A stretch of DNA of 64,000 bases from Patescibacteria group bacterium (GCA_041662625.1 JBAZSB010000001.1:246467-310466); one strand, 5' to 3'; counted from the stretch's first letter, positions 7,710 through 59,160 are shown. Made by a program: numbers and translations. The notes: generated by a model from the sequence alone, not told the origin.

Positions 7710-9059
7710 TTATTTTTTACCCAAAAGAGTATTGGGGCTAGTAAAAAGAATAATTAAATAGACAACCGCTAGGACTAAAACTATTGCTAACCAAGTAACC
7801 AGCCAGCATTGAGGATACCAGATTATTACTGAAACAATAGCAATTAGCGCCGGAACTAACCCAGAGTATTTGACTAGCTTATTACCATTTTTACCTTTAA
7901 GGGCAATAATTGCCGCTGTCACTAAATTCAGAACAAGTAAAAGCCAGATGTAATTAATGCAATTTTTTGGCGTAGCGGCTGGCTCTTCTTCGGTAGTTTC
8001 GGCAAGAACTTTCCCTTCTTCTTCAGTCGGCTGCTCCTTTCCGGTAACTACTGTGGAAGTCGGCGTTATTTCTTCTTGAAAGCCAACCCCAGCTACTGTA
8101 CCAGCCGGATTGGTTGGCGCAGTTGGGTTGCCAGATATTGGCGGAGTTTCAGCCGGCGGCAGGGTTTCTTCTGCCGGTGGAACTGGTAATCCAGCTGATT
8201 CGCCTGTAGTTTTGAAAGTTAAACTGCGGCTGACCGTATCAGGCGAAGCGTGGGAAATTACGCGATAATAATAAGTTGTGCCGGGCGTTAAGCCGGTCAA
8301 AGTCACGGAATGAAAAGTAACTTTGGTTAAATCATCAATCGTTGAATGGGCATAACCGTAATTCGGTGGACTGCTGAAATCAAAAGTGTGCGCTTCATTT
8401 TCCGCGCCCCAAATCACCCGGCTGGTAGATAAATAATTAGTCTGCCAAGTGAGTGTCGCCGTAACAGTCATAACATTAATTTCCGCTTCATTGAAAATCG
8501 TCAGACCGGCTGGCACACTGCCACCACCACCGCTACCGCCACCAGCTCCTCCACCGCCGCCTTGGCCGGGCGGAGTAACGGGTGTCTGCTCGCCTTGAAA
8601 ACCGACTAAGATATCGAAATTATTCAAAATTTTATTTTTGTAATCATTGCCGGCGCTGGAATTAAAAGTCACTATTAAATCATAAGTTGTACTCGCGTTG
8701 TTTGCCAAATTGGATAAAAATGTCTCGCCTTGATTGAAAAATTCAGTTAAACTTTTATTTAGAATCGTTTGGCTCCCCTCTTTTATTTCTAAATTTAAAG
8801 CATTGCCAAAATGATTTGGGTCATTGACATTAATCGCTTCAATAGCCAAGGGCTTTGATACGCCGCTTTTGTTTTTAATTTCAATGTGAGCGGTTACTGC
8901 TTGGCCGGGCAAAAAATTCACCGCGCCAAAAAGCGGATTGGGATTAAAGATGACAACTATATTACTTTCGGTCGCTAAAACTGGGCCGGCAAACATAAAT
9001 CCGGCTATCAGGGCAATAGCGGTAATTCCGATAAATTCTAATTTTTTTATTCTAAGCAT
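7710..9059 (-). CDS. Secreted surface protein (449 aa) with signal peptide, Gly-rich linker, PAP-N-like Fn3 domain, Pro-rich stalk and the shared C-terminal two-TM anchor
   Basis: The signal peptide, GQGGGGGAGGGSGGGG linker, Fn3 segment TLTWQTNYLSTSRVIWG...TTYYYRVIS and the C-terminal 85 aa are about 85% identical to the giant protein at both protein and DNA level. Confidence 0.8.
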   Translation of the reverse strand: MLRIKKLEFIGITAIALIAGFMFAGPVLATESNIVVIFNPNPLFGAVNFLPGQAVTAHIEIKNKSGVSKPLAIEAINVNDPNHFGNALNLEIKEGSQTILNKSLTEFFNQGETFLSNLANNASTTYDLIVTFNSSAGNDYKNKILNNFDILVGFQGEQTPVTPPGQGGGGGAGGGSGGGGSVPAGLTIFNEAEINVMTVTATLTWQTNYLSTSRVIWGAENEAHTFDFSSPPNYGYAHSTIDDLTKVTFHSVTLTGLTPGTTYYYRVISHASPDTVSRSLTFKTTGESAGLPVPPAEETLPPAETPPISGNPTAPTNPAGTVAGVGFQEEITPTSTVVTGKEQPTEEEGKVLAETTEEEPAATPKNCINYIWLLLVLNLVTAAIIALKGKNGNKLVKYSGLVPALIAIVSVIIWYPQCWLVTWLAIVLVLAVVYLIILFTSPNTLLGKK

Positions 9060-9070
9060 ATTGATTATTT

Positions 9071-11596
9071 TTAAGCGGCAGGAGCAGCGTCAGTCGGCGC
9101 TGGTGGCGCTGGATCAGGACCGGGAGCGGACTCTACTGGCGCGGGCGGCTCAACCGTAATCGCCGGCTCCGGCTCAAGGGCCGGATTTTGTTCGCTTAAT
9201 TCCGCCGGGGTATCCGGAATATTTTCCGTAGTATCAGCCGGCTGGTCGTTAGAATCGCCGGTTTCATTGCTAAAATTGTCTGCGGGATTATCAGCGGGCA
9301 GCTCAGGTTCAGTCACCAAACCGGTATGATCAGCTGGATCAGTAATAGTAGTTTCTTCTTCCGGCACGGTTGTTTCCAAAGGTGTATCAGTTGGTGGTTC
9401 AGCTACTGTTTCAGCCGCCTCCTGACCGGAATTATCACCAGTATTTCCCGAATCGGCCGGGATCTCAATGGCTGGCTCGGTATTACCGGTATCGGCCGGC
9501 GGATCAGTATTTTCCGGGGTAGTTGTTGCTTCATCTTGTGTTATTATAGGCGTTTCAAAAATCGATGGCTCTTCAATCGGGAACAACTCCATCCCTTCTG
9601 GCAGCAAGCCCAAAAATCTCAGCATTTCTATTTCTTCGGGCAAAAGCAAACCGTAATCAATGGGCGGACAAAAATCTTGGTCTGATTGATCCCAGGCCTG
9701 AACCATAAAGTTTTCCGGCCCATGGGCCACCACCTTAACTCTGGCTGTATGCGAAGGCGCATAATAACAACCGCCATTACCGTCATCAAAGCAAAGCGGC
9801 ACCCGGAAATCATAAGTTCCGCTATTATTGATTCCTCTCACGACATTACCCCAAGTGGCACCACTATCTTTGGAATACCAAAGGTCAATAGTTAAAGCGG
9901 AATCAGGGCCGTTAGGATTGGTTGCGGTCCAGCTTATATTATGGGTTCGGCCCACCCACCAAATTTCGCCGCCATTAGGCGATAAAACCGTAACTTGGGG
10001 CAAACCTAAATCGATGAAATCCGACGGCTGATCCGTATCAAGACCCAAAGGCACTCGGCCCAGCATATGGCCTTCTGTCACATCCGTGCAGCCAGGATCC
10101 CAAACGTTTAAATTGTAGTTTGGCCAATCTGAATCAGGCGCGCCCCAGTTCATCTGATCAATAATTTTGCCGGCGGGATTTTTTAAAATAAGCATGTCGG
10201 CGGTGTTGTTGAGGCTATTGCCGATTGGGCTACTTAAAACAATTCTGGTAACACCAGTGGGAATTTCCCAATAATTCCAGGTAGTATCTTGATTAGTAAT
10301 AATGGCAAAGCCGCCGGCGGGAATTAGAGTAGAATCTGGTAAAATATCGCAAGCGTTATTGTCGCAAATTTTCCAATTTGATAAATCAACAGAACCAGAG
10401 GCCGGATTATAAAGTTCAATCCACTCGTTGTCAGCTTCATCACCGTGGCTTGAATCCACATCATAATAAACTTTATTTATGGCCACATAACTCCAGTCAC
10501 CGGAGGAAACCGTATCAGCAATTGTTTCTTCATCGGTAAAACCTTGGCTTTCGTTGGTAAAATCCGTCTGCCAACCAAAAACAGTATATTTGAATTCGCA
10601 GGTTTTATTTTGCAGTGAAGAAGGCGCATCAGCTGGCAAGCCGATATCTAGCTGCCATTCATTGGTTAAAATTGAAAAGATGCTTGGCGTGTAAGTAAAA
10701 TCCAGTAAATTTCCCGAGTATACTAAAGTTCCGTTAAGGTAAGCATCAACATCAAGGGCTTGGCAAAAATCAGTGTCGCCTGATGTTTGTTCGATATTCA
10801 TCTGATATTGAAAATTCAAAAGGCCGATATTAATAATATCAATCCACCGCCCGACAGATTCGTCAGGTGTTATTTTTCGGGTTAGGCCGTCATCAAATTT
10901 GTTATTAATTTCATCAATGCAGCCATTGATAACCGACGGACTGAAAACGCTTAGTTGTCCGGCTAATATATTATTGGCTTCAGTCAAAACTTCGCCGGCC
11001 GTCATGTCTTCGCACGGACTGGCTGGTTCGTTGGCATAATAATTTTCCAGCGTGCTGGTGTTGACGCTAAAATTGGGATCATAAACGTCAAAGCCGAGGT
11101 TAAGCGTTAGGGCAACAACTTGGCCGGCCAAGACTCCGGCTTCGGTATCAGTCGGGTTTTCATGGTTTTGCGAAAATGGCGCCGGTGGTCCCCCGCTTGG
11201 CAAAAAATTTTCTATATCCGCGCTGGTTGCAAAATGGGCAGAATAGCCAAACCCCCCGCCGATAGTCAAACCAGTGGGAAAGGCCAGATCAAAATTAGCG
11301 TCGCGGTAAACGGCTGGGTTATCACCATGAGCAGAGGCTCCCCAACCGCCTTGGGTTTGGGTGCGAAAGCCGTCTGAGCGGGTAAAATCCAAAGAAAAAT
11401 CCAGGGTACTGGCGGTAAAATTACCATCTGAAGTTTCCAAATCGTTATAATAGGCAATGGTCTGACCAATTGCCGAAAGTCCGGTCCAATTAAGGCCAAA
11501 CAATAACAAAATCGCTACTACTTTTAATAATGGTTTTTTTACCAAATCAAAATTAGTTTGTTTTTTCTGGATTTTTCTTTTTCTTGATTTCCGCAT
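9071..11596 (-). CDS. Secreted 841-aa protein with camelysin/TasA-type (SipW-cognate) N-terminus, lamin-tail domain, BNR/Asp-box and an acidic Pro/Thr/Glu-rich C-terminal tail
   Basis: N-terminus ...LSAIGQTIAYYNDLETSDGNFTASTLDFSL matches the camelysin-type mature N-terminus. LTD motif EWIELYNPASGSVDLSNWKI. BNR motif SKDSGATWGN. The start overlaps the sipW-like ORF by 44 nt, so an alternative TTG/GTG start is possible. Confidence 0.7.
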   Translation of the reverse strand: MRKSRKRKIQKKQTNFDLVKKPLLKVVAILLLFGLNWTGLSAIGQTIAYYNDLETSDGNFTASTLDFSLDFTRSDGFRTQTQGGWGASAHGDNPAVYRDANFDLAFPTGLTIGGGFGYSAHFATSADIENFLPSGGPPAPFSQNHENPTDTEAGVLAGQVVALTLNLGFDVYDPNFSVNTSTLENYYANEPASPCEDMTAGEVLTEANNILAGQLSVFSPSVINGCIDEINNKFDDGLTRKITPDESVGRWIDIINIGLLNFQYQMNIEQTSGDTDFCQALDVDAYLNGTLVYSGNLLDFTYTPSIFSILTNEWQLDIGLPADAPSSLQNKTCEFKYTVFGWQTDFTNESQGFTDEETIADTVSSGDWSYVAINKVYYDVDSSHGDEADNEWIELYNPASGSVDLSNWKICDNNACDILPDSTLIPAGGFAIITNQDTTWNYWEIPTGVTRIVLSSPIGNSLNNTADMLILKNPAGKIIDQMNWGAPDSDWPNYNLNVWDPGCTDVTEGHMLGRVPLGLDTDQPSDFIDLGLPQVTVLSPNGGEIWWVGRTHNISWTATNPNGPDSALTIDLWYSKDSGATWGNVVRGINNSGTYDFRVPLCFDDGNGGCYYAPSHTARVKVVAHGPENFMVQAWDQSDQDFCPPIDYGLLLPEEIEMLRFLGLLPEGMELFPIEEPSIFETPIITQDEATTTPENTDPPADTGNTEPAIEIPADSGNTGDNSGQEAAETVAEPPTDTPLETTVPEEETTITDPADHTGLVTEPELPADNPADNFSNETGDSNDQPADTTENIPDTPAELSEQNPALEPEPAITVEPPAPVESAPGPDPAPPAPTDAAPAA

Positions 11597-12071
11597 AAAT
11601 TTTTCTGGCTTCGTCGAAAATTATAGCTAAGGCCGGCACGATGATTATTAGCAGGAATCCCAGCGGTTTTCTGGCAAAATCAACGGCATAACCGGCAAAG
11701 GGAACGGAAAACAGAACTTTGCCGTGAATCTCGGCTGGCGTAACCTCTCTGGTATCTGGCGCGTTATTAGCGTCGCCCTTGGTGATATAAATCGGCTTAC
11801 CTTCCTGAACGCGAATGTCATTAATCCGGTGGGTAATCGGCGTTTGGGTTTTACCGATTTTGCCGAAAGTAATGATGTCGCCGATCTGATAATTAGTTGC
11901 CGGCTTTACCATTACAATACTGCCGGTATGAATTGCCGGCTCCATTGAACCGGAAAGCACAGTCAGAACCTTGAAATTACCGGTCAGGGGCAAAATCGAA
12001 ATCACCAAAAGCAAGGCGATCGCCGCAATCAGCGCAATAAATATGTAATAAACAACTTTAAAGATTTTCAT
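11553..12071 (-). CDS. sipW: Signal peptidase I, ER/archaeal type (SipW class, S26B)
   Basis: N-terminal TM helix followed by VLSGSMEPAIHTGSIVMVKP (SGSMEP catalytic-Ser motif of Sec11/SipW-type SPases). Size 172 aa. Sits directly adjacent to camelysin/TasA-like genes, as in Bacillus tapA-sipW-tasA. Confidence 0.8.
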   Translation of the reverse strand: MKIFKVVYYIFIALIAAIALLLVISILPLTGNFKVLTVLSGSMEPAIHTGSIVMVKPATNYQIGDIITFGKIGKTQTPITHRINDIRVQEGKPIYITKGDANNAPDTREVTPAEIHGKVLFSVPFAGYAVDFARKPLGFLLIIIVPALAIIFDEARKIYAEIKKKKNPEKTN

Positions 12072-12095
12072 GGATTTTCATGGATTATTTTATTC

Positions 12096-14111
12096 TTACC
12101 AGCCAAAATCTGGTAAATCTGGTGGCCAATCAATTGTACAAGTCGGATAATTTAGTCCCGGCATATAGCAAATACAGCCGGTTTGACCGGTATTGGGATC
12201 ACAATATCCATACGATGAACTTGTGCAAGTAGGCAGGATTGTAGGATTATGCGCACAACCAGCTATGCCGCAAATGTCGGCTGTACAGGCGTTACTGTCA
12301 TCGCAATTATTCGGACAATTTGGATTGAGGTTGCAGCTGACTACGCCGGCGCTGCAAGTACCGCTAAATGTGCATTGTAAAGAAACTAAGCTCACATGCT
12401 GGCAAATGGTTGCCGAGCAGGAATCAGCAGTACAGCTGTTATTGTCATTACAATCGGCACTGGAAGTGCAGCCGCCCGGAGGAATTAGTGGCGCAATGCA
12501 TGCTCCAATTGCGCTGCAGGTATATCCGTTGCAACCGCCGCCTAACATACAGGTTAAATTTGAGCACGATGCGCCCACATTGGGACTTGCCTCGTAAACA
12601 CAGCCCCACATGTCTCCGCCCGCGCCGATGCAAGTCGATAATAGACAGGAATTCATCGCCTGGCTAGCGCATATATTATTACTCGGCGTATGAACGCAGC
12701 TGCCATTCACGCAAGTATCAACAGTGCAAGCTACGCCATCATTATTACAATCGTTATTACTTGTACATTCAGGCGCTGGTGGCAGACAATCGGCCGCACA
12801 GGTGGCAGTCGTTTCCGAAGGCGAGCAAGTGCCATCCGGACAGACCGGGTTACAATCTAAACTATTTAGAAAACAACCATAATCAGCGCAATCGATTTGG
12901 CCATCACCTTCATTGTCTATACCGTCATGGCAGTTAGTTTCCGGGCTGCAAACGCCATCTTCATCAGTTGCGCCATCACAGTCATTATCAAATGAATCAC
13001 AAGCTTCCACACCGTTGTTTGTCGGGGTGCAATCACTGCAATTATTATCAGTACTACCGTCGCAATCATCGTCTAAGCCATTGTCACAGATTTCAGTTCC
13101 GGCTTGATTATTTTGCGTACATTGAAGCGCCCCGCCAGTACAAGTTAAAGTTCCAGCTGAACAAACACCCGATAAGCCCGTGTTGCACACGCTTCCGCCG
13201 CCTGGATTTCCTTCATCAACAACTTGGTCGCAATCATCATCTAGGCCATTACAGACTTCTGTGGTTGGCGTGCAAGTGGGCTCGCATGCTAAATCGCTGC
13301 CGTTACAATCTTCATCAATATCATTGCCGCAGATTTCGGTTGTCGGAGAGCAGCCGCCGGTAGCGTTACAAACAAATTGGGGCAAATTTCTGGCTTGAAC
13401 CGCGGTAAAGATAATATCCGCTAGTAAACTGTCAGTTTGGATTTCATTGCCGGTGGCCAAAGGCACATTCCATTTAACGCCCAAACAATGAGTAGTGCCG
13501 CCTTGCATTGGCGCGCCTAAAGATGAATCGGCAATCGGCCAGTAACCCGCCTGGACGGTCTGGTTTTGAATTACATAAGTTTCGTCTTCATCTTTGATAT
13601 TATTACAATTATGCTCACCGGCTCCGTTATCGTTCCAAATTGTGAAAAATAAATTATTTTGCAGTTCACCTTCGCCCGCGCCGCAGGTGGAGTCAACCTT
13701 GTTTTCCGGACTGTCGCAACCGTTGTCATCTTTAACTAAATTGGCAATTTCGGCGCACATCCAGGCGTCATTATTATCCACGTGCAAGCTGATAGTGTCT
13801 TCACCACTATCCCCGGGCTTAACATCCAAAAGATTAAAATAAAGTTCACCATTCAAATCTTTGGCTGACCAGGTACAGAAACATTCCTCTTGTGTCCCCT
13901 GCCAGAAATACTTTCCTGATCCGCTCGGATCTAAAATGCAAACTTTGCCGTTGTAATGGCAGGTGTTATCAATTTGTAAATTGAATTTTCCGGCTTTAAA
14001 AGTATTTCCGACTGAGCTTTCGGTGTCGGAAAAATAGGCAATGGTTCCGCCAATGGCAATGGCAGCCACAATTGCGATGACACCGAGACTGATTACGATT
14101 TTTTTCTTCAT
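12096..14111 (-). CDS. Camelysin/TasA-like domain (Peptidase M73 family) fused to a long C-terminal Cys-rich MopE-like repeat region
   Basis: MKKKIVISLGVIAIVAAIAIGGTIAYFSDTESSVGNTFKAGKFNLQID is the SipW-cognate signal plus TasA-like N-terminus. Residues ~250-671 carry repeated C..DxDCDG..DE motifs (CGNDIDEDCNG, CNGLDDDCD, CDNGLDDDCDG, CDSFDNDCDG). Confidence 0.8.
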   Translation of the reverse strand: MKKKIVISLGVIAIVAAIAIGGTIAYFSDTESSVGNTFKAGKFNLQIDNTCHYNGKVCILDPSGSGKYFWQGTQEECFCTWSAKDLNGELYFNLLDVKPGDSGEDTISLHVDNNDAWMCAEIANLVKDDNGCDSPENKVDSTCGAGEGELQNNLFFTIWNDNGAGEHNCNNIKDEDETYVIQNQTVQAGYWPIADSSLGAPMQGGTTHCLGVKWNVPLATGNEIQTDSLLADIIFTAVQARNLPQFVCNATGGCSPTTEICGNDIDEDCNGSDLACEPTCTPTTEVCNGLDDDCDQVVDEGNPGGGSVCNTGLSGVCSAGTLTCTGGALQCTQNNQAGTEICDNGLDDDCDGSTDNNCSDCTPTNNGVEACDSFDNDCDGATDEDGVCSPETNCHDGIDNEGDGQIDCADYGCFLNSLDCNPVCPDGTCSPSETTATCAADCLPPAPECTSNNDCNNDGVACTVDTCVNGSCVHTPSNNICASQAMNSCLLSTCIGAGGDMWGCVYEASPNVGASCSNLTCMLGGGCNGYTCSAIGACIAPLIPPGGCTSSADCNDNNSCTADSCSATICQHVSLVSLQCTFSGTCSAGVVSCNLNPNCPNNCDDSNACTADICGIAGCAHNPTILPTCTSSSYGYCDPNTGQTGCICYMPGLNYPTCTIDWPPDLPDFGW

Positions 14112-14142
14112 AGATTTTTGCTGATTGAAAATTTAAATTAAA

Positions 14143-14169
14143 ATATTTGGTGGCTGCCTTAGTCTCACT
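14143..14169 (-). terminator. Hairpin (possible terminator/attenuator) between TasA-like paralogues 2 and 1
   Basis: ggctgccttag-tctca-ctagggcagcc with an A/U-rich tail on the minus strand. Confidence 0.5.
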
Positions 14170-14296
14170 AGGGCAGCCTTTACCCCCACACCAAATAAGT
14201 CTAGTGCATTTTAAACTTATTTAGTGTAGGGGAAAATCCCCTAAGCACTCCCCCTTTCACCAAAAATAATTGGTGTGGGGGTAAATATTTCAAGTA

Positions 14297-15586
14297 TTAG
14301 TAGTCTAAGTCTTGAATCGGAGGCAGAGCTACACTATCACAACTGAAGTTTTCGTTGTTTCTTTGCTGAGTGGCATACAAAACAATGTCAGCAAGCAGTT
14401 GATCTGTTTGCGCGTTGTTTTGATTACCGCTACCCGAGCATGAAATAGTTCCGTCCAAAGCAACTGTTTGAGTTCCAACACACCAGGCAATTCCCAAATT
14501 ACCAGAGCCATTTGCCAAAATCGGTAATCTGCCAATTGCTGGAAGAGTATCAAACGGCCCATTATATAGGAGTGGTGACTCTGTACCCGGTTCATATACT
14601 CCATCGCCATCATCTTCCCAAACAACTAGATTAAGGTATTGAGACAATTCTCCTGGTTCACCGGTATCTCCTGAAGCTGTTTCCGGTTCAGCTAAGCTGT
14701 TCTCTAAATTCTGCTCATTATTTACCAGCATACAAACATAAGCGTCATTGCTTTCAACATGCAGAGAAATTACATTAGTTCCCCAGTCGCCCGGTTTAAC
14801 ATCACCGAAATTCCAGAAAGTGTCGCCTAAGCCGAGATCTCTCTCACCCCAAAGCGTACAAATGCCGCCGCCTTCGAACTGGCTGGTGCAGTTAAGTTCC
14901 ATAACGCTGATATCATCCAAATATCCGCCGTAGGAATTATTGGTCCCTAAATCGGAAAACATCACTTTTGTGGCAGCATCGGTGGCAATAAAGTTATAGG
15001 TATATGCTGTCCAAACCGTATTTGAACCGCCGGCAGAAGCTGCGCCAATGGTGTCATTTACCAAAATGGTGCTGTCGCTCACGACTTTGACTATGGCGCC
15101 AATGGTGTTATCGCCAGCCGGACGATTCGGGCGGGGCGAATACCAAAAGGTCAGGCGGTACTGCTGGCCGGCAACTGTTGTTAAAGTTTGGGAAATAGCA
15201 GATGAATTATTACTGTCTAATTCCGCTAACTGGCTGCCGCCATGTGGCGCACCCGCGGCGTTGTCCTGGATTTCTAGACCCGCGCCAGATTCCACTGTCC
15301 AAGAAGTTAGGCTGGCATCAGGATAAATTGCCCAACCGCCTGATGGCACGTTTGGCGTCTCAAAGCCGCCATTTAAAATAAGATTACTGCCAGTCTCTAC
15401 ACAAATGCCCACACAATTATGGCCATTATAGGTCTGTTTGGTGTGATCGACTTTTAAGTCAATCGAACCGGCGGTAAAGGTATTACCGCTGGAAATTTCC
15501 GTGTCGCTGAAATAAGCCACGGTTGCCCCGATTGCCAAAGCGGCGACGACCGCGATGACACTCAAGCTTAGTACGATTTTCTTCAT
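14297..15586 (-). CDS. Camelysin/TasA-like protein with inserted DUF642/CBM-like beta-sandwich domain
   Basis: N-terminus MKKIVLSLSVIAVVAALAIGATVAYFSDTEISSGNTFTAGSIDLKVD. Insert contains LNGGFETPNVPSGGWAIYP...LTSWTV. The conserved TasA-like C-terminal half (ISLHVESNDAY...QTDQLLADIVLYATQQRN) is shared with the paralogues. Confidence 0.8.
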   Translation of the reverse strand: MKKIVLSLSVIAVVAALAIGATVAYFSDTEISSGNTFTAGSIDLKVDHTKQTYNGHNCVGICVETGSNLILNGGFETPNVPSGGWAIYPDASLTSWTVESGAGLEIQDNAAGAPHGGSQLAELDSNNSSAISQTLTTVAGQQYRLTFWYSPRPNRPAGDNTIGAIVKVVSDSTILVNDTIGAASAGGSNTVWTAYTYNFIATDAATKVMFSDLGTNNSYGGYLDDISVMELNCTSQFEGGGICTLWGERDLGLGDTFWNFGDVKPGDWGTNVISLHVESNDAYVCMLVNNEQNLENSLAEPETASGDTGEPGELSQYLNLVVWEDDGDGVYEPGTESPLLYNGPFDTLPAIGRLPILANGSGNLGIAWCVGTQTVALDGTISCSGSGNQNNAQTDQLLADIVLYATQQRNNENFSCDSVALPPIQDLDY

Positions 15587-15637
15587 AGTTTTTGTTGATT
15601 TATTAATTTTTAAAATAATTATTTAAAACCTTTATCG

Positions 15638-15664
15638 GTTGCCTTAGCGAGGCTAAGGCAACCT
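15638..15664 (-). terminator. Hairpin (possible terminator/attenuator) between TasA-like paralogues 3 and 2
   Basis: ggttgccttagc-gag-gctaaggcaacc perfect 12-bp stem with an A/U-rich tail on the minus strand. Shares the gccttag core with the 14143 hairpin. Confidence 0.55.
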
Positions 15665-15688
15665 AAAAGATTTCTAGTATTATCGGTT

Positions 15689-16960
15689 TTAGTTCAGTAG
15701 TAGAGTTGTGCTGGCACAACTGAAATTCTCGTTGTTTCTTTGCTGTTCTGCATAAGCGGTAAAGGAAGCAGACAGAATGTCAGTTTGGGCAATATCACCC
15801 ATACTGGAACCATCGCAAAGAATATTATTACCGCTCAAACTCTGCGTTCCGGCACACCAGGCAAAGCCAATATATTGGGTATTGGATGCCACAAGCGATA
15901 TATTACCTATTGCCGTATTGAAGGAGGCGTTTGGTCCGGTGATTACTGTTTCACCTTCGTATACGCCATTACCGTCGTCTACCCAGGCAAAAACCTTGAT
16001 AAACTGCGAAAGCTCTCCGACTACGGAATTGATATTATCACCCGCGGTAATTTCCGGATCAACAACGGTTTCTTCTACGTCAACAATGTCGCTGGTGATT
16101 AAACAAGCATAAGCGTCATTGTTGTACACGTGCAGGCTGATAAGATTCGTTCCTCGGTCACCAGGTTTGACATCGTCAAAGCTGAAGAATTTTTCATTGG
16201 TCAAATCTTTTTCGCCCCAAAGCTGACAATGAGCTTTGTAGTAGTTATCCTGGCAATTCCCGCTAATGAAGAACTTATAAATAAGTCCGCCGGGATTGTT
16301 GAACGGCGTACCGGGCGGATTTAACAAAGCCCAGTTTTTAACTTCAAAGGTGAGAACATTTGTGCCTTGCACGATATAGCTGTTGACCAATGCTCCGGGA
16401 ATATGAAGCATGTTTCCCTGCCGATAACCAAACTCCATGGTATTTTCGGCAATTAGTGTACCGTTTAGCCAAATTTTGATGCTGTTATCAGAACCGACGC
16501 CAAACCAGAGGTCAGATGAAAGAATCGGACCATACCACTCAAATGTCTTTTCAAAAGTGTAAGTGACATCCGAAGTGGTATCTTCTTGTCTGGTTGGGTC
16601 TGATTCCCAGATCCATTTAGCGCCCGCGGCTACTAAGTCGGGGTCATTTTGCGCTGTCCAGGCTGAATGGATGAAGAAAGGCGTAAGGCTGCCAACAAAC
16701 ACCGCGGGATATGGAGTAACTGAAACTCCGTTTCTTTTAACCACGATGTTGCTCGGGTTGCTTATTAAGGTGAGGTTGCAAGTATTGCAATCAACATCAT
16801 TATAAGTCTGCCGCAAGTGATCCACTTTCAAATCCATGGTGCCGGCAACTAAGATATTGCCAGCTGAAGTCTCCGTATCATTGAACAAAGCCACAGTTGC
16901 TCCAATTGCTACTGCCGCAACTATTCCGATAACACTCAAGCCGAGTATTATTCTTTTCAT
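15689..16960 (-). CDS. Camelysin/TasA-like protein with a different inserted beta-sandwich domain
   Basis: N-terminus MKRIILGLSVIGIVAAVAIGATVALFNDTETSAGNILVAGTMDLKVD. C-terminal half (ISLHVYNNDAYACL...QTDILSASFTAYAEQQRN) is paralogous to 14297..15586. Only a 27-nt gap separates it from the upstream paralogue. Confidence 0.8.
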   Translation of the reverse strand: MKRIILGLSVIGIVAAVAIGATVALFNDTETSAGNILVAGTMDLKVDHLRQTYNDVDCNTCNLTLISNPSNIVVKRNGVSVTPYPAVFVGSLTPFFIHSAWTAQNDPDLVAAGAKWIWESDPTRQEDTTSDVTYTFEKTFEWYGPILSSDLWFGVGSDNSIKIWLNGTLIAENTMEFGYRQGNMLHIPGALVNSYIVQGTNVLTFEVKNWALLNPPGTPFNNPGGLIYKFFISGNCQDNYYKAHCQLWGEKDLTNEKFFSFDDVKPGDRGTNLISLHVYNNDAYACLITSDIVDVEETVVDPEITAGDNINSVVGELSQFIKVFAWVDDGNGVYEGETVITGPNASFNTAIGNISLVASNTQYIGFAWCAGTQSLSGNNILCDGSSMGDIAQTDILSASFTAYAEQQRNNENFSCASTTLLLN

Positions 16961-16987
16961 ATCGGTTTAATGATTATTGCGGGTTAA

Positions 16988-17719
16988 TTAGGATTGGAAA
17001 GGATTTGGATTATTTCTGTACTGTTCAACTTGGAATTCCATTGTTGCACTCATGCTATCATTCTGGACTTCATTGCCAACTGTGGTTGGTAAATTCCAGG
17101 TAATCCCAAAACAGACGGTTTGATCACCTAATACAGGAGTTGGCAAGGTCCAAGTTTCACCGTTAGCATCAATGGTTCCAGCAGAAATCAATTCAACATC
17201 GCTTTCATTTAGAATGTTATCACAATTACCATCTGCAAAAACGGTAAATATGAGATTTTCTCTTAACTCACCGGACGTTAAGCCATCAGTATCTACGCTT
17301 GCTTCCGGTTCGGTAAGCGTATTGTCATTATCGGTAACATCATCAATAACTAATCTCAACCAGGCATCATTATTATTGACGTGTAAGCTTATAGTGTTTT
17401 CTCCAGAATCACCTGGCTTAAGATCGGAGAAATTAAAGAATTTCTGAACGCCTAAATCAGTTGCTGTCCAAGTGCCATCGCAAAGAGTTCCTGGTACTGG
17501 GTAAATATCAGTTCCTTGCCATACATATACCTCTTGGTCATTAAGAGCACAAACATTTCCGTTGTAATGCTGGGTACTATCAACTGTTAAATCAATTGCT
17601 CCAGCAGTAAAAGTATTACCAGCTGAAGTTTCGGTGTCGCTGAAGTAAGCAACGGTTGCGCCAATGGCAATCGCGGCCACAATGGCAATCGCGCTTACGC
17701 TAATTAGAATTTTTTTCAT
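16988..17719 (-). CDS. Camelysin/TasA-like protein, minimal 243-aa form
   Basis: MKKILISVSAIAIVAAIAIGATVAYFSDTETSAGNTFTAGAIDLTVD...ISLHVNNNDAWLRL...QNDSMSATMEFQVEQYRN. First gene of the minus-strand cluster, preceded by about 600 bp of non-coding DNA. Confidence 0.85.
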   Translation of the reverse strand: MKKILISVSAIAIVAAIAIGATVAYFSDTETSAGNTFTAGAIDLTVDSTQHYNGNVCALNDQEVYVWQGTDIYPVPGTLCDGTWTATDLGVQKFFNFSDLKPGDSGENTISLHVNNNDAWLRLVIDDVTDNDNTLTEPEASVDTDGLTSGELRENLIFTVFADGNCDNILNESDVELISAGTIDANGETWTLPTPVLGDQTVCFGITWNLPTTVGNEVQNDSMSATMEFQVEQYRNNPNPFQS

Positions 17720-18347
17720 AGTTTTTTATTATTCTTTCTTATCCCCCACCACTTTTTATTATTAAACGAAAGTAGTGAGAGAGTTTATTAAGTAACTTAC
17801 CCTATCATTTAAGACAGGGCCTTGCCCTTTTTTGATGGGGCAAGCCACTTAATCTAATCTCGGTTACGACCCGAGAACGTCGACCTTTATCCGCCTAAAT
17901 TTTGGCGGATTAATTATTTTATTAGGTAAGTTACAACTTGTTATTTAATTTCTCAAGGAACAAAAAAATCTCTACCAATCGAGCAGAGACTTAATATATA
18001 TAAATTTTTTATTGTTGAAATCTGGCAATTACAGCAATGCTTCCCAATTTGCCAATAAAGATATTCTTTTGTGCTTTTATTACCCATGTCTTAATTCTTA
18101 AATTAAAATAAAAAACCAATTTCTAACCCCCTATTTTTCACCCCCTTTGCTTTTTGAAGCTTTTATGCCCGTCTTTGGCAGGTTAAATTTGGTTTTTGGT
18201 TTTTTCTTTTTTGTCGATTTTAGCTTAATGAAAGTAAAATCTCCCCCTTAGCTTATCAAAAATATTTTTTATTAGCAATAGCTATCGAGCCTGATTTATC
18301 CACACTTTAAAAACTATTTGGTCACCCTAATTTTTAAAACAAAACTA

Positions 18348-19922: not shown

Positions 19923-20085
19923 AATATCCACTTCTCGGGGACCCGCCTACGTCCCTTCGGGACTACGGCGGGCAGGCAGAATCTGGCGTCTCCCGACGTC
20001 GCCCATTGCTTTATTTTTATGGCGAGTCGGGATGCCGACCTTACGTCGGCACTACTTAGTCAACAATGTTCACTTCTCGGGGACC
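19923..20085. repeat. About 21-bp direct repeats (aat[ag]t[tc]cacttctcggggacc at 19923..19943 and 20065..20085) flanking a 121-bp insert; the right copy is the 3' end of tRNA-Gln
   Basis: Seen directly. The 3' acceptor segment of tRNA-Gln (ggtccccgagaagtg) is duplicated 142 bp away. The intervening DNA carries the 26-nt motif gaatctggcgtctcccgacgtcgcc, also present at 37598..37623. Confidence 0.6.
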
Positions 20086-20146
20086 AGGAATCGGACCTGG
20101 ATTAGCAGAGCCAGAATCTGCCGTCCTACCATTAGACGATCCCCGA
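20076..20146 (-). tRNA. tRNA-Gln (anticodon CUG)
   Basis: Manual fold of the minus-strand RNA: acceptor tcgggga/tccccga with U1-A72 and G73 discriminator (the Gln identity set), D-arm gtc/gac, anticodon arm gcaga-ttCTGgc-tctgc, T-arm ccagg-tccgatt-cctgg. CCA is not encoded. Confidence 0.7.
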
Positions 20147-42559: not shown

Positions 42560-42660
42560 TTGATTAATTTTTATTAGGAATTAGGAAGTTAAGAATTTAG
42601 GAGTTAGCACATTGTCTAAGTCTAATTCCTAATTTCCTAAATTCCTAAAGCCTAACTTCC
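42560..42660. repeat. Intergenic palindromic repeat, family 2 (aggaatt/aattcct units), copy 1
   Basis: ttaggaattaggaagttaagaatttaggagttag ... ctaattcctaatttcctaaattcctaaagcctaacttcctac. Confidence 0.7.
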
Positions 42661-43160
42661 TACTTCGCCACTTTCACCTTGGCCGGATAAATCACTTTAC
42701 CATGCAAAGTATAGCCGGCTTTGACTTCTTCAAAGATAACATCTGTTTCAAAACCTTCTTTTTCTTCATGACTGGCTGCTTCATGAAACTGGGGGTCAAA
42801 CTTTTCACCAACTGTTTTGATTTCTTCAATGCCAAGCTGTTTCAAAAAGTCTTCAAACTGTTTTTTAATATGGAAAAACCCAATTACCCAATCGGCTTTT
42901 TTTTGTTCGGGCGGCACATGCTGCAAAGCCAGTTTAAAATGGTCGAAAACCGGCAAAAGCTGGGCCACCAAAGCGGCATTGGCAAATTGGATTAATTCTC
43001 CTTGTCTTTTTTCGGTATCTTTCTTTAAATTCAAATAATCCGCCTTAGCCCGTTTCCAGCCGTCTAAATGTTCCTCGGCTTTTCTTTGGGCTAGCTCAAG
43101 TTCTGATTTTAGTTCATCGATATCAAAGTCGTTGTCTTGTTGTTGAGTTTTGTTTTGCAT
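42660..43160 (-). CDS. grpE: Nucleotide exchange factor GrpE
   Basis: Coiled-coil N-terminus, GrpE C-terminal beta domain, position within the hrcA-grpE-dnaK operon. Confidence 0.85.
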   Translation of the reverse strand: MQNKTQQQDNDFDIDELKSELELAQRKAEEHLDGWKRAKADYLNLKKDTEKRQGELIQFANAALVAQLLPVFDHFKLALQHVPPEQKKADWVIGFFHIKKQFEDFLKQLGIEEIKTVGEKFDPQFHEAASHEEKEGFETDVIFEEVKAGYTLHGKVIYPAKVKVAK

Positions 43161-59085: not shown

Positions 59086-59160
59086 ATTTAGGAATTAGGA
59101 ATTAGGAATTAGGAATTAGGACCAATTTCCTAACTTCCTAATTCTTAATTCCTTATTCAC
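59086..59160. repeat. Intergenic palindromic repeat, family 2, copy 2, with (aggaatt)x4 tandem core
   Basis: tttaggaattaggaattaggaattaggaattagga-ccaatttcctaacttcctaattcttaattcctta. Confidence 0.75.

Follow-up and report, generated by a model that had tools for sequence, protein, structure and literature searches.

The question raised by this locus is what is made by a row of putative secreted proteins whose genes flank a single signal peptidase gene in a Patescibacteria group bacterium, a tiny cell of the Candidate Phyla Radiation (CPR)/Patescibacteria with a probably parasitic lifestyle. The locus lies on a stretch of 64,000 nucleotides (GCA_041662625.1 JBAZSB010000001.1:246467-310466), the whole of which is called the window here, with positions counted from its first letter. 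Eight co-directional genes are arranged on the minus strand in the transcription order P1-P2-P3-P4-peptidase-P5-P6-P7 (Table 1). An initial annotation covering 11553-17719 had proposed a SipW-type signal peptidase coupled to four tandem camelysin/TasA-like paralogues, and all five open reading frames (ORFs) were present on the minus strand where it had placed them; P5, P6 and P7 lie outside that interval. The analysis described below indicates that the cluster from 17719 to 7710 is probably a TasA-superfamily surface-fibre or adhesin operon with a dedicated SipW-class peptidase, and that this organisation is conserved in the CPR.

The signal peptidase matched TIGR02228, the archaeal and endoplasmic reticulum (ER)-type signal peptidase I family, at 131.2 bits (cutoff 51.85) over model positions 2-156 of 158, in agreement with the SipW-class assignment that had been made from its SGSMEP motif. 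Alignment with human SEC11A (7p2p) gave conserved positions for the catalytic serine S42 within SGSMEP, the S26B-type histidine H81 and the aspartates D100 and D106, with the motif pairs SGSMEP/SGSMEP, PITHRI/PIVHRV and KGDANNAPD/KGDNNAVDD in the peptidase and SEC11A respectively. The predicted Ser/His catalytic pair is therefore present, and the histidine stands where bacterial signal peptidases carry lysine. Hydrophobic segments were found at both the N-terminus and the C-terminus of the 172-residue protein. The score against NF046067, the Bacillus SipW equivalog, was 118.6 bits, under the cutoff of 190; judged by these profiles the enzyme is of the SipW class, yet is no equivalog of Bacillus SipW.

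The four paralogues had been described as sharing a SipW-type N-terminal motif, and each exceeded the cutoff of 19 bits for TIGR04088, the SipW-dependent signal family (P1 35.0, P2 23.2, P3 31.0 and P4 36.0 bits). A fifth bearer had been missed, namely P5, the ORF directly after the peptidase, whose opening ...AIGQTIAYYNDLETSDGNFTASTLDF shares the paralogue motif (AYYNDLETSDGNFTASTLDF) as judged by eye in the sequence; a TIGR04088 search of P5 gave no match at E≤0.01. When a loose regular expression of the motif was run on all window ORFs of at least 60 residues it matched only P1-P5, every one near the peptidase, and this confinement to five peptidase-adjacent ORFs indicates that the motif is not a chance pattern. 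The peptidase presumably cleaves these adjacent TIGR04088-type substrates, with indirect support from the linkage of the genes in 70 of 70 loci and from 19 in-frame fusions.

The linkage was measured by scanning one genome per GTDB species, which gave 444 relatives, and by taking 80 loci for gene-order counts using profiles built for the analysis. The related loci that are clearly labelled come from Parcubacteria/Paceibacteria, Microgenomates, Nomurabacteria and similar groups. A SipW gene was found downstream on the same strand in 70 of the 80 loci, and in all of the remaining 10 the contig ends no more than 2.5 kb past the last paralogue. The conserved gene order is one to four P1core genes, then SIPW, then P5core with or without a lamin-tail domain (LTD), then P6N with or without an FN3 domain. 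Among the 70 loci the number of paralogues before SipW was one in 2 loci, two in 31, three in 25 and four in 12, so that the four-plus-one layout of the window is within the normal range. In 56 of 67 loci SipW is followed by, or fused to, a P5-like gene, and short module-free paralogues of about 240-300 residues head many of the related loci.

The expanded architecture had been thought undescribed, a view that these counts do not bear out, as the same order recurs in every testable locus and twelve of them hold four paralogues. P1 itself is 100% identical to a protein named 'TasA family protein [Patescibacteria group bacterium]' at NCBI, and a protein search with P1 returned 1,934 relatives. 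Patescibacteria also appear among the phyla with PF12389 in a published phylum list (PMC9245690), and multi-subunit TasA-superfamily loci with a dedicated peptidase are known for the Tafi and AbpX systems. A search of the literature on TasA, SipW or camelysin in CPR, Patescibacteria, Saccharibacteria and Parcubacteria found no study of the system, the sole mention being that phylum list.

In 19 of the 70 loci the peptidase ORF was longer than 260 residues. Beyond the peptidase part the frame stayed open across a basic linker, another hydrophobic segment and a SipW motif, in most cases reaching a TasA core of the P5 type or a lamin-tail domain. These in-frame fusions of peptidase and substrate provide strong independent evidence that the two act jointly. 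In such ORFs the enzyme would be attached to the protein that it presumably cuts, which implies self-processing.

The relationship of the predicted mature proteins to TasA was examined using sequence profiles and structural models. Alignment by hhalign to mature TasA, for which the query sequence was confirmed against PDB chain 8aur_A, gave E values of 0.014 for the P1 family and 8e-4 for the P6N family, both statistically weak. The alignments were collinear over the whole domain and paired both the (K/L)PGD motif and, at the C-terminus, the GN.(V/Y)Q strand, the P1 family and TasA pairing as FNFSDLKPGD/VNLSNLKPGD and GNEVQ...F.V.Q/NKYQ...FSFEATQ. The AlphaFold2 model of P1 had a predicted local distance difference test score (pLDDT) of 82 and a predicted template-modelling score of 0.75; only the signal peptide and residues 30-40 were modelled with low confidence, and the putative donor segment had a pLDDT below 50 in this monomer model. 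The TasA fibre was the best structural match of both the P1 model and the P6 N-domain model, while a Foldseek search was less discriminating. On the basis of the models the cores are assigned to the TasA structural superfamily, but as a diverged family of their own.

TasA subunits polymerise when the N-terminal strand formed by precursor residues 28-38 is inserted into the next one, and TapA mimics this strand (PMC9674648). The segment of P1 equivalent to that donor strand corresponds to a conserved block, as 11 of the 30 positions that are invariant across the P1 family fall within residues 26-47. The predicted mature ends of P1-P5 are YFSD, LFND, YFSD, YFSD and YYND, with phenylalanine or tyrosine at position 2 and aspartate at position 4 in all, so that the five proteins would follow an aromatic-2/acidic-4 rule at their predicted cleavage sites.

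The same N-terminal region accounts for the matches to PF12389 (Peptidase_M73), which were obtained for P1, P3 and P4 at 25.6-31.4 bits (cutoff 22.5) and not for P2. The expected Peptidase_M73/TasA profile hits were thus found at three N-termini, but the mature bodies were not covered. Together with the JGI name 'ribosomally synthesized peptide with SipW-like signal peptide', these matches could point to camelysin-type secreted metalloproteases or to precursors of ribosomally made peptides. The PF12389 match is restricted to the signal and N-terminal strand, however, no protease family in Pfam or NCBIfam matched the bodies, and proteins of 243-841 residues with confidently folded beta-sandwich domains in the models are not peptide precursors. 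Both readings were rejected on the grounds of signal-only matches and large folded domains, and are considered highly improbable.

Differing modules had been placed in the middle of the paralogues, which held for P2 and P3 but not for P4. The inserts of P2 and P3, about 180 residues each, sit in a loop that is bracketed by Cys and separates the N-terminal strand from the core, and the P1core profile matches residues 227-419 of P2. A Pfam search of the P2 insert gave no match. The P3 insert matched Pfam DUF642 (E 8e-10) and TIGR04362 (81 bits, below cutoff), and by these matches is carbohydrate-binding-module-like. P4 has no loop insert, its Cys-rich module being a C-terminal extension of 416 residues that contains 57 Cys and gave profile matches to Dicty_CTDC, MopE-like and acidic double-disulfide repeats. 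P5 consists of an inserted module, a TasA-like core (10502-10906), a lamin-tail domain (10127-10486; Pfam E 3.8e-15), an immunoglobulin-like region and an acidic Pro/Thr/Glu-rich tail. Its core of about 135 residues and the N-domain of P6 are homologous (hhalign probability 97.7%, E 1.3e-12); the comparison of P5core with P1core was not significant (E 0.26).

Carbohydrate-binding-like and Cys-rich modules of this type would also suit a set of non-polymerising adhesins, in which each of P1-P5 would be a lectin-like protein exported on its own and processed by SipW, P6 and P7 would be membrane adhesins independent of them and the conserved N-terminal segment would serve only for peptidase recognition or wall attachment. 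This explanation gains from polymerisation being an inferred step and from the modest similarity of the P1 core to TasA. The conserved segment behind the cut nevertheless corresponds to the donor strand of TasA and conforms to the aromatic-2/acidic-4 rule. Signal peptidases are not known normally to require such a run of about 20 conserved residues past the cleavage site. The module-free P1, with its similar short counterparts at the head of many loci, is also hard to explain as an adhesin, and the best matches of the P6 N-domain model are exclusively donor-strand filaments. A set of separate adhesins is consequently regarded as unlikely.

P6 differs from P1-P5 in having an ordinary AxA signal peptide, which is followed by a TasA-like N-domain (8571-8975), an FN3-like domain, a Pro-rich linker and three C-terminal hydrophobic segments (7713-7967). 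The N-domain lacks the donor-strand motif, the donor segment of about 17 residues being missing. A database search with the N-domain as a single sequence gave one relative and with its profile 23, mostly fragments; C-terminal transmembrane (TM) segments were present in 22 of 32 P6 homologues.

The proposed fibre would be assembled as follows. P1-P5 would be exported by Sec and cut by the peptidase after a small-x-small site, which in P1 would fall between TVA and YFSD. The cut would expose the donor strand, with a mature end patterned as in TasA (AFND...) and by the rule reported for proteins of the AbpX type, and this strand would enter the jelly-roll groove of a neighbouring subunit by donor-strand complementation, possibly aided by Ca2+, to give a non-covalent fibre in which P1-P5 co-polymerise. 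P1 would be the plain shaft subunit with no extra module, while P2, P3 and P4, built on the same strand and core, would be minor subunits with galactose-binding-like, DUF642 and Cys-rich adhesive heads. P5 would contribute its lamin-tail domain, so that P2-P5 would be module-bearing minor or tip subunits. P6, with a groove but no donor strand and with C-terminal TM segments, may be an acceptor-only membrane base similar to TafF. The whole would serve to attach a small cell to its host or to a surface.

The same donor-strand subunits could instead form a two-dimensional coat, sheath or matrix lattice and not discrete pili. TasA (PMC9674648) and AbpX (bioRxiv 10.64898/2026.01.04.697558) both form bundles or lattices, and the very acidic character of AbpX subunits is shared here, mature P1 having an isoelectric point (pI) of 4.05 and 16% aspartate plus glutamate. 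A cell-attached appendage accords better with a membrane-anchored P6 and with modules of the adhesin type, although not decisively, and a lattice is considered decidedly unlikely.

The secreted fibre or adhesion apparatus suggested by the initial annotation thus remains the best reading of the cluster, resting on the SipW-class peptidase, its neighbours with cognate signals and cores that are most like TasA, although P5 and P6 had been overlooked. Several observations weigh against it. A profile of 69 P1-family sequences gave 0 matches among all PDB sequences even at E≤10, and the PF12389 matches reach only profile positions 2-51 of 196, equivalent to residues 1-50, the signal and donor strand. 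The similarity of the mature bodies to TasA in sequence profiles is not significant, so that the anticipated TasA fold is borne out by the models, which are closest to the TasA fibre, but not by the profiles. A P6-like gene follows in 27 of the 51 loci with room for one, so that the anchor is not universal, and neither a hairpin nor any other feature singles out P1 for higher expression than the others. Polymerisation, anchoring, cleavage and surface location are all inferred, and the polarity of the fibre, with donor strands directed towards the cell and opposite to the TapA-TasA model, is pure conjecture.

The genes had also been described as separated by strong hairpins that suggested graded expression. 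Such hairpins were found after P2 and P3, but at only two of the four junctions, with none after P1 or P4. The hairpin after P2 and the terminal hairpin after P3 have a GGYTGCCYTAG stem in common, which occurs nowhere else without mismatch, and comparable intergenic hairpins occur elsewhere in the window. No U-run lies beside either of them, a terminator scan gave no intrinsic terminator at any paralogue junction, and the hairpins do not follow the putative major subunit. Graded expression through hairpins was rejected as unsupported, given the lack of an intrinsic terminator at the paralogue junctions. An Rfam search of the cluster intergenic regions and the P1 leader found nothing.

When the cluster was compared with known systems, the closest parallels were with tapA-sipW-tasA of Bacillus subtilis and sipW-tasA-calY of B. 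cereus. These likewise place a dedicated ER/archaeal-type peptidase beside TIGR04088 substrates, the jelly-roll core is nearest to the TasA fibre subunit, and the mature N-terminal pattern x-F-x-D...TF.AG.LDL fits the TasA donor strand. The gene order is different, however, with 4-6 TasA-like domains compared to 1-2 in Bacillus, mature bodies too diverged for Pfam or PDB sequence profiles, and lectin-like modules in the core loop together with a TM-anchored, donor-less TasA-like protein. The peptidase falls below the SipW equivalog cutoff (118.6 against 190), and the host belongs to the Patescibacteria and is not a Firmicute. None of the eight cluster proteins matched the TapA family in Pfam or NCBIfam. 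The Clostridium perfringens BsaA family (TIGR04090) is also a family of SipW-dependent matrix proteins, to which the N-terminus of P4 has a weak match; membership of P4 was rejected, as the score was 23.6 bits against a cutoff of 60 and involved only the N-terminal 40 residues with the motif.

The haloarchaeal Tafi system, a multi-component donor-strand pilus locus made up of TafA/TafE pilins, a TafC tip, a TafF anchor, a TafD peptidase and TafG (DUF5305), resembles the cluster in its major and minor pilins, variable tip or adhesin, putative membrane-anchored jelly-roll base and dedicated signal peptidase (PMC12337348). TafF is itself a membrane-anchored jelly-roll protein proposed as the base (PMC12337348), but its TM helix precedes the jelly-roll, whereas in P6 it comes after. 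Tafi is an archaeal system with subunits that are often Tat-secreted, and no DUF5305 accessory gene was seen in the cluster. AbpX-type loci, a TasA-superfamily group from archaea, Bacillota and Chloroflexota, share acidic subunits (pI about 4, about 15% D/E), and encode a signal peptidase together with minor subunits, tip proteins and anchors; their very acidic subunits polymerise with Ca2+, and the peptidase is known to occur fused to accessory proteins (bioRxiv 10.64898/2026.01.04.697558). The peptidase of AbpX loci has ten TM helices, unlike the two-segment SipW-class enzyme of 172 residues found here, bacterial AbpX anchors are SLH or LPXTG proteins, and here it is a substrate, not DUF5305, to which the peptidase is fused. 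The archaeal bundling pili (ABP; AbpA/AbpB) and the cannulae (CanA/CanX) differ in being formed from single-domain subunits of hyperthermophilic archaea, and the ABP operon has no dedicated peptidase.

One related locus (L026, BTXY01000001.1:1-12771) belongs to Candidatus Microsyncoccus archaeolyticus PMX.50 and carries the same operon at the very start of the contig, with TasA-like genes for 453 and 417 residues, SipW, a P5-like gene and a P6-like gene. The protein encoded at L026:3374-4627, directly upstream of sipW, shares 63% identity with P2 along its whole length and is likely, from this identity, to be the P2 orthologue. By gene order and numbering, and not by a sequence given in the paper, it is likely to be PMX.50_00003, which was reported as one of the five genes of unknown function with the highest expression in that genome, with a 'galactose-binding domain fold' and a proposed role in host adhesion; TasA is not mentioned (PMC10936435). 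In the supplement of that study PMX.50_00004 is assigned to K13280 (SEC11/sipW) and has an expression value for each of the two time points, so that sipW is expressed alongside a separate lepB, PMX.50_00208 (PMC10936435).

P7 is a protein with vWA, SdrD-B, PA14, DUF642 and FN3-like domains and MopE-like Cys repeats, containing 92 Cys. Its last 90 residues or so, with three hydrophobic segments, are paralogous to the C-terminal anchor of P6, and this anchor sequence was found in only one other of the related loci (L079). Modules of P7 reappear as inserts in the TasA-like paralogues of other loci. A gap of 230 nucleotides with promoter-like sequence precedes P7, which probably has its own promoter, and its membership of the fibre system is uncertain. 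Downstream of P7 an ORF at 1-1249 on the minus strand runs off the start of the window and encodes an FN3/purple-acid-phosphatase-N-like domain as in P6 and P7, so that the surface-protein island extends past the window.

Upstream of P1 there is a non-coding gap of 628 nucleotides (17720-18347) containing a terminator-like hairpin at 17966-17992 and further hairpins at 17889-17910 and 17816-17828; this gap could be the leader or a regulatory region of the operon. A DUF4015 gene upstream was excluded from the cluster, as it is not conserved beside it in related loci. Elsewhere in the window a tRNA gene (20076-20146, minus strand) lies inside a perfect 17-nucleotide inverted repeat (20067-20083/20140-20156) that overhangs both tRNA ends by about 9-10 nucleotides, giving an unusually long precursor stem. 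AT-rich inverted repeats of TTAGGAA-like units occur at two intergenic positions (42575-42666 and 59088-59158) and may represent a genome-wide repeated hairpin element.

Table 1. Genes and structural features of the cluster, and related loci with peptidase fusions.
Feature	Position	Strand	Description
P1	16988-17719	minus	243 residues; minimal TasA-like subunit, candidate major shaft subunit
P1 signal peptide	17648-17719	minus	residues 1-24
P1 predicted mature N-terminus	17579-17647	minus	YFSDTETSAGNTFTAGAIDLTVD; candidate donor strand
P2	15689-16960	minus	423 residues; TasA-like subunit with inserted module of ~180 residues (about 16241-16789)
P3	14297-15586	minus	429 residues; TasA-like subunit with inserted DUF642/choice-of-anchor-C domain (14903-15382)
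P4	12096-14111	minus	671 residues; TasA-like subunit with 416-residue Cys-rich C-terminal extension (12099-13346)
Signal peptidase I	11553-12071	minus	172 residues; ER/archaeal-type (SipW-class, S26B)
P5	9071-11596	minus	841 residues; fifth SipW-motif protein; alternative TTG start at 11545
P6	7710-9059	minus	449 residues; candidate membrane-anchored base
P7	1261-7479	minus	2072 residues; giant adhesin
Hairpin after P2 stop	15632-15668	minus	12 bp, GC-rich; 102-nucleotide spacer, -29 kcal/mol, z -7.2
Structure after P3 stop	14150-14285	minus	multi-branched, ~135 nucleotides, plus hairpin; -68.8 kcal/mol, z -7.6
Fusion loci			L010, L018, L019, L020, L024, L028, L032, L033, L041, L048, L056, L058, L059, L065, L069, L074, L077, L078, L080
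Example fusion ORF	L041:14247-15800		

The type of system is already known, a TasA-superfamily fibre with a dedicated peptidase, and no new principle is involved. What is new is the CPR-wide conserved operon, the lectin-like domains in the core loop of a pilin, the donor-less TM-anchored TasA-like protein and the fusions of peptidase and substrate. A bolder proposal, to which only a low probability is given, is that Patescibacteria have, in addition to type IV pili, another attachment organelle found throughout the phylum, in which a polar, membrane-anchored donor-strand fibre would stand on the acceptor-only base P6 with a polarity opposite to that of TapA-TasA, its shaft subunits would carry swappable lectin-like heads in the core loop, and the fibre would decide host recognition by these episymbionts. 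Cleavage would in this proposal be physically coupled to the hand-off of the strand, a coupling hinted at by the fusions of peptidase and substrate that occur in roughly one genome in four.

For the recognition and holding of hosts by CPR/Patescibacteria, type IV pili have so far been the sole appendage discussed. Should the products of the operon assemble into a TasA-type fibre that bears variable lectin-like heads, they would be testable candidates for host attachment and specificity, and Ca. Microsyncoccus, a cultured parasite of methanogens, offers an experimentally accessible model for the operon. If true, the donor-strand fibres of the TasA superfamily would extend to another major bacterial lineage, with the added features of core insertion and peptidase-substrate fusion.

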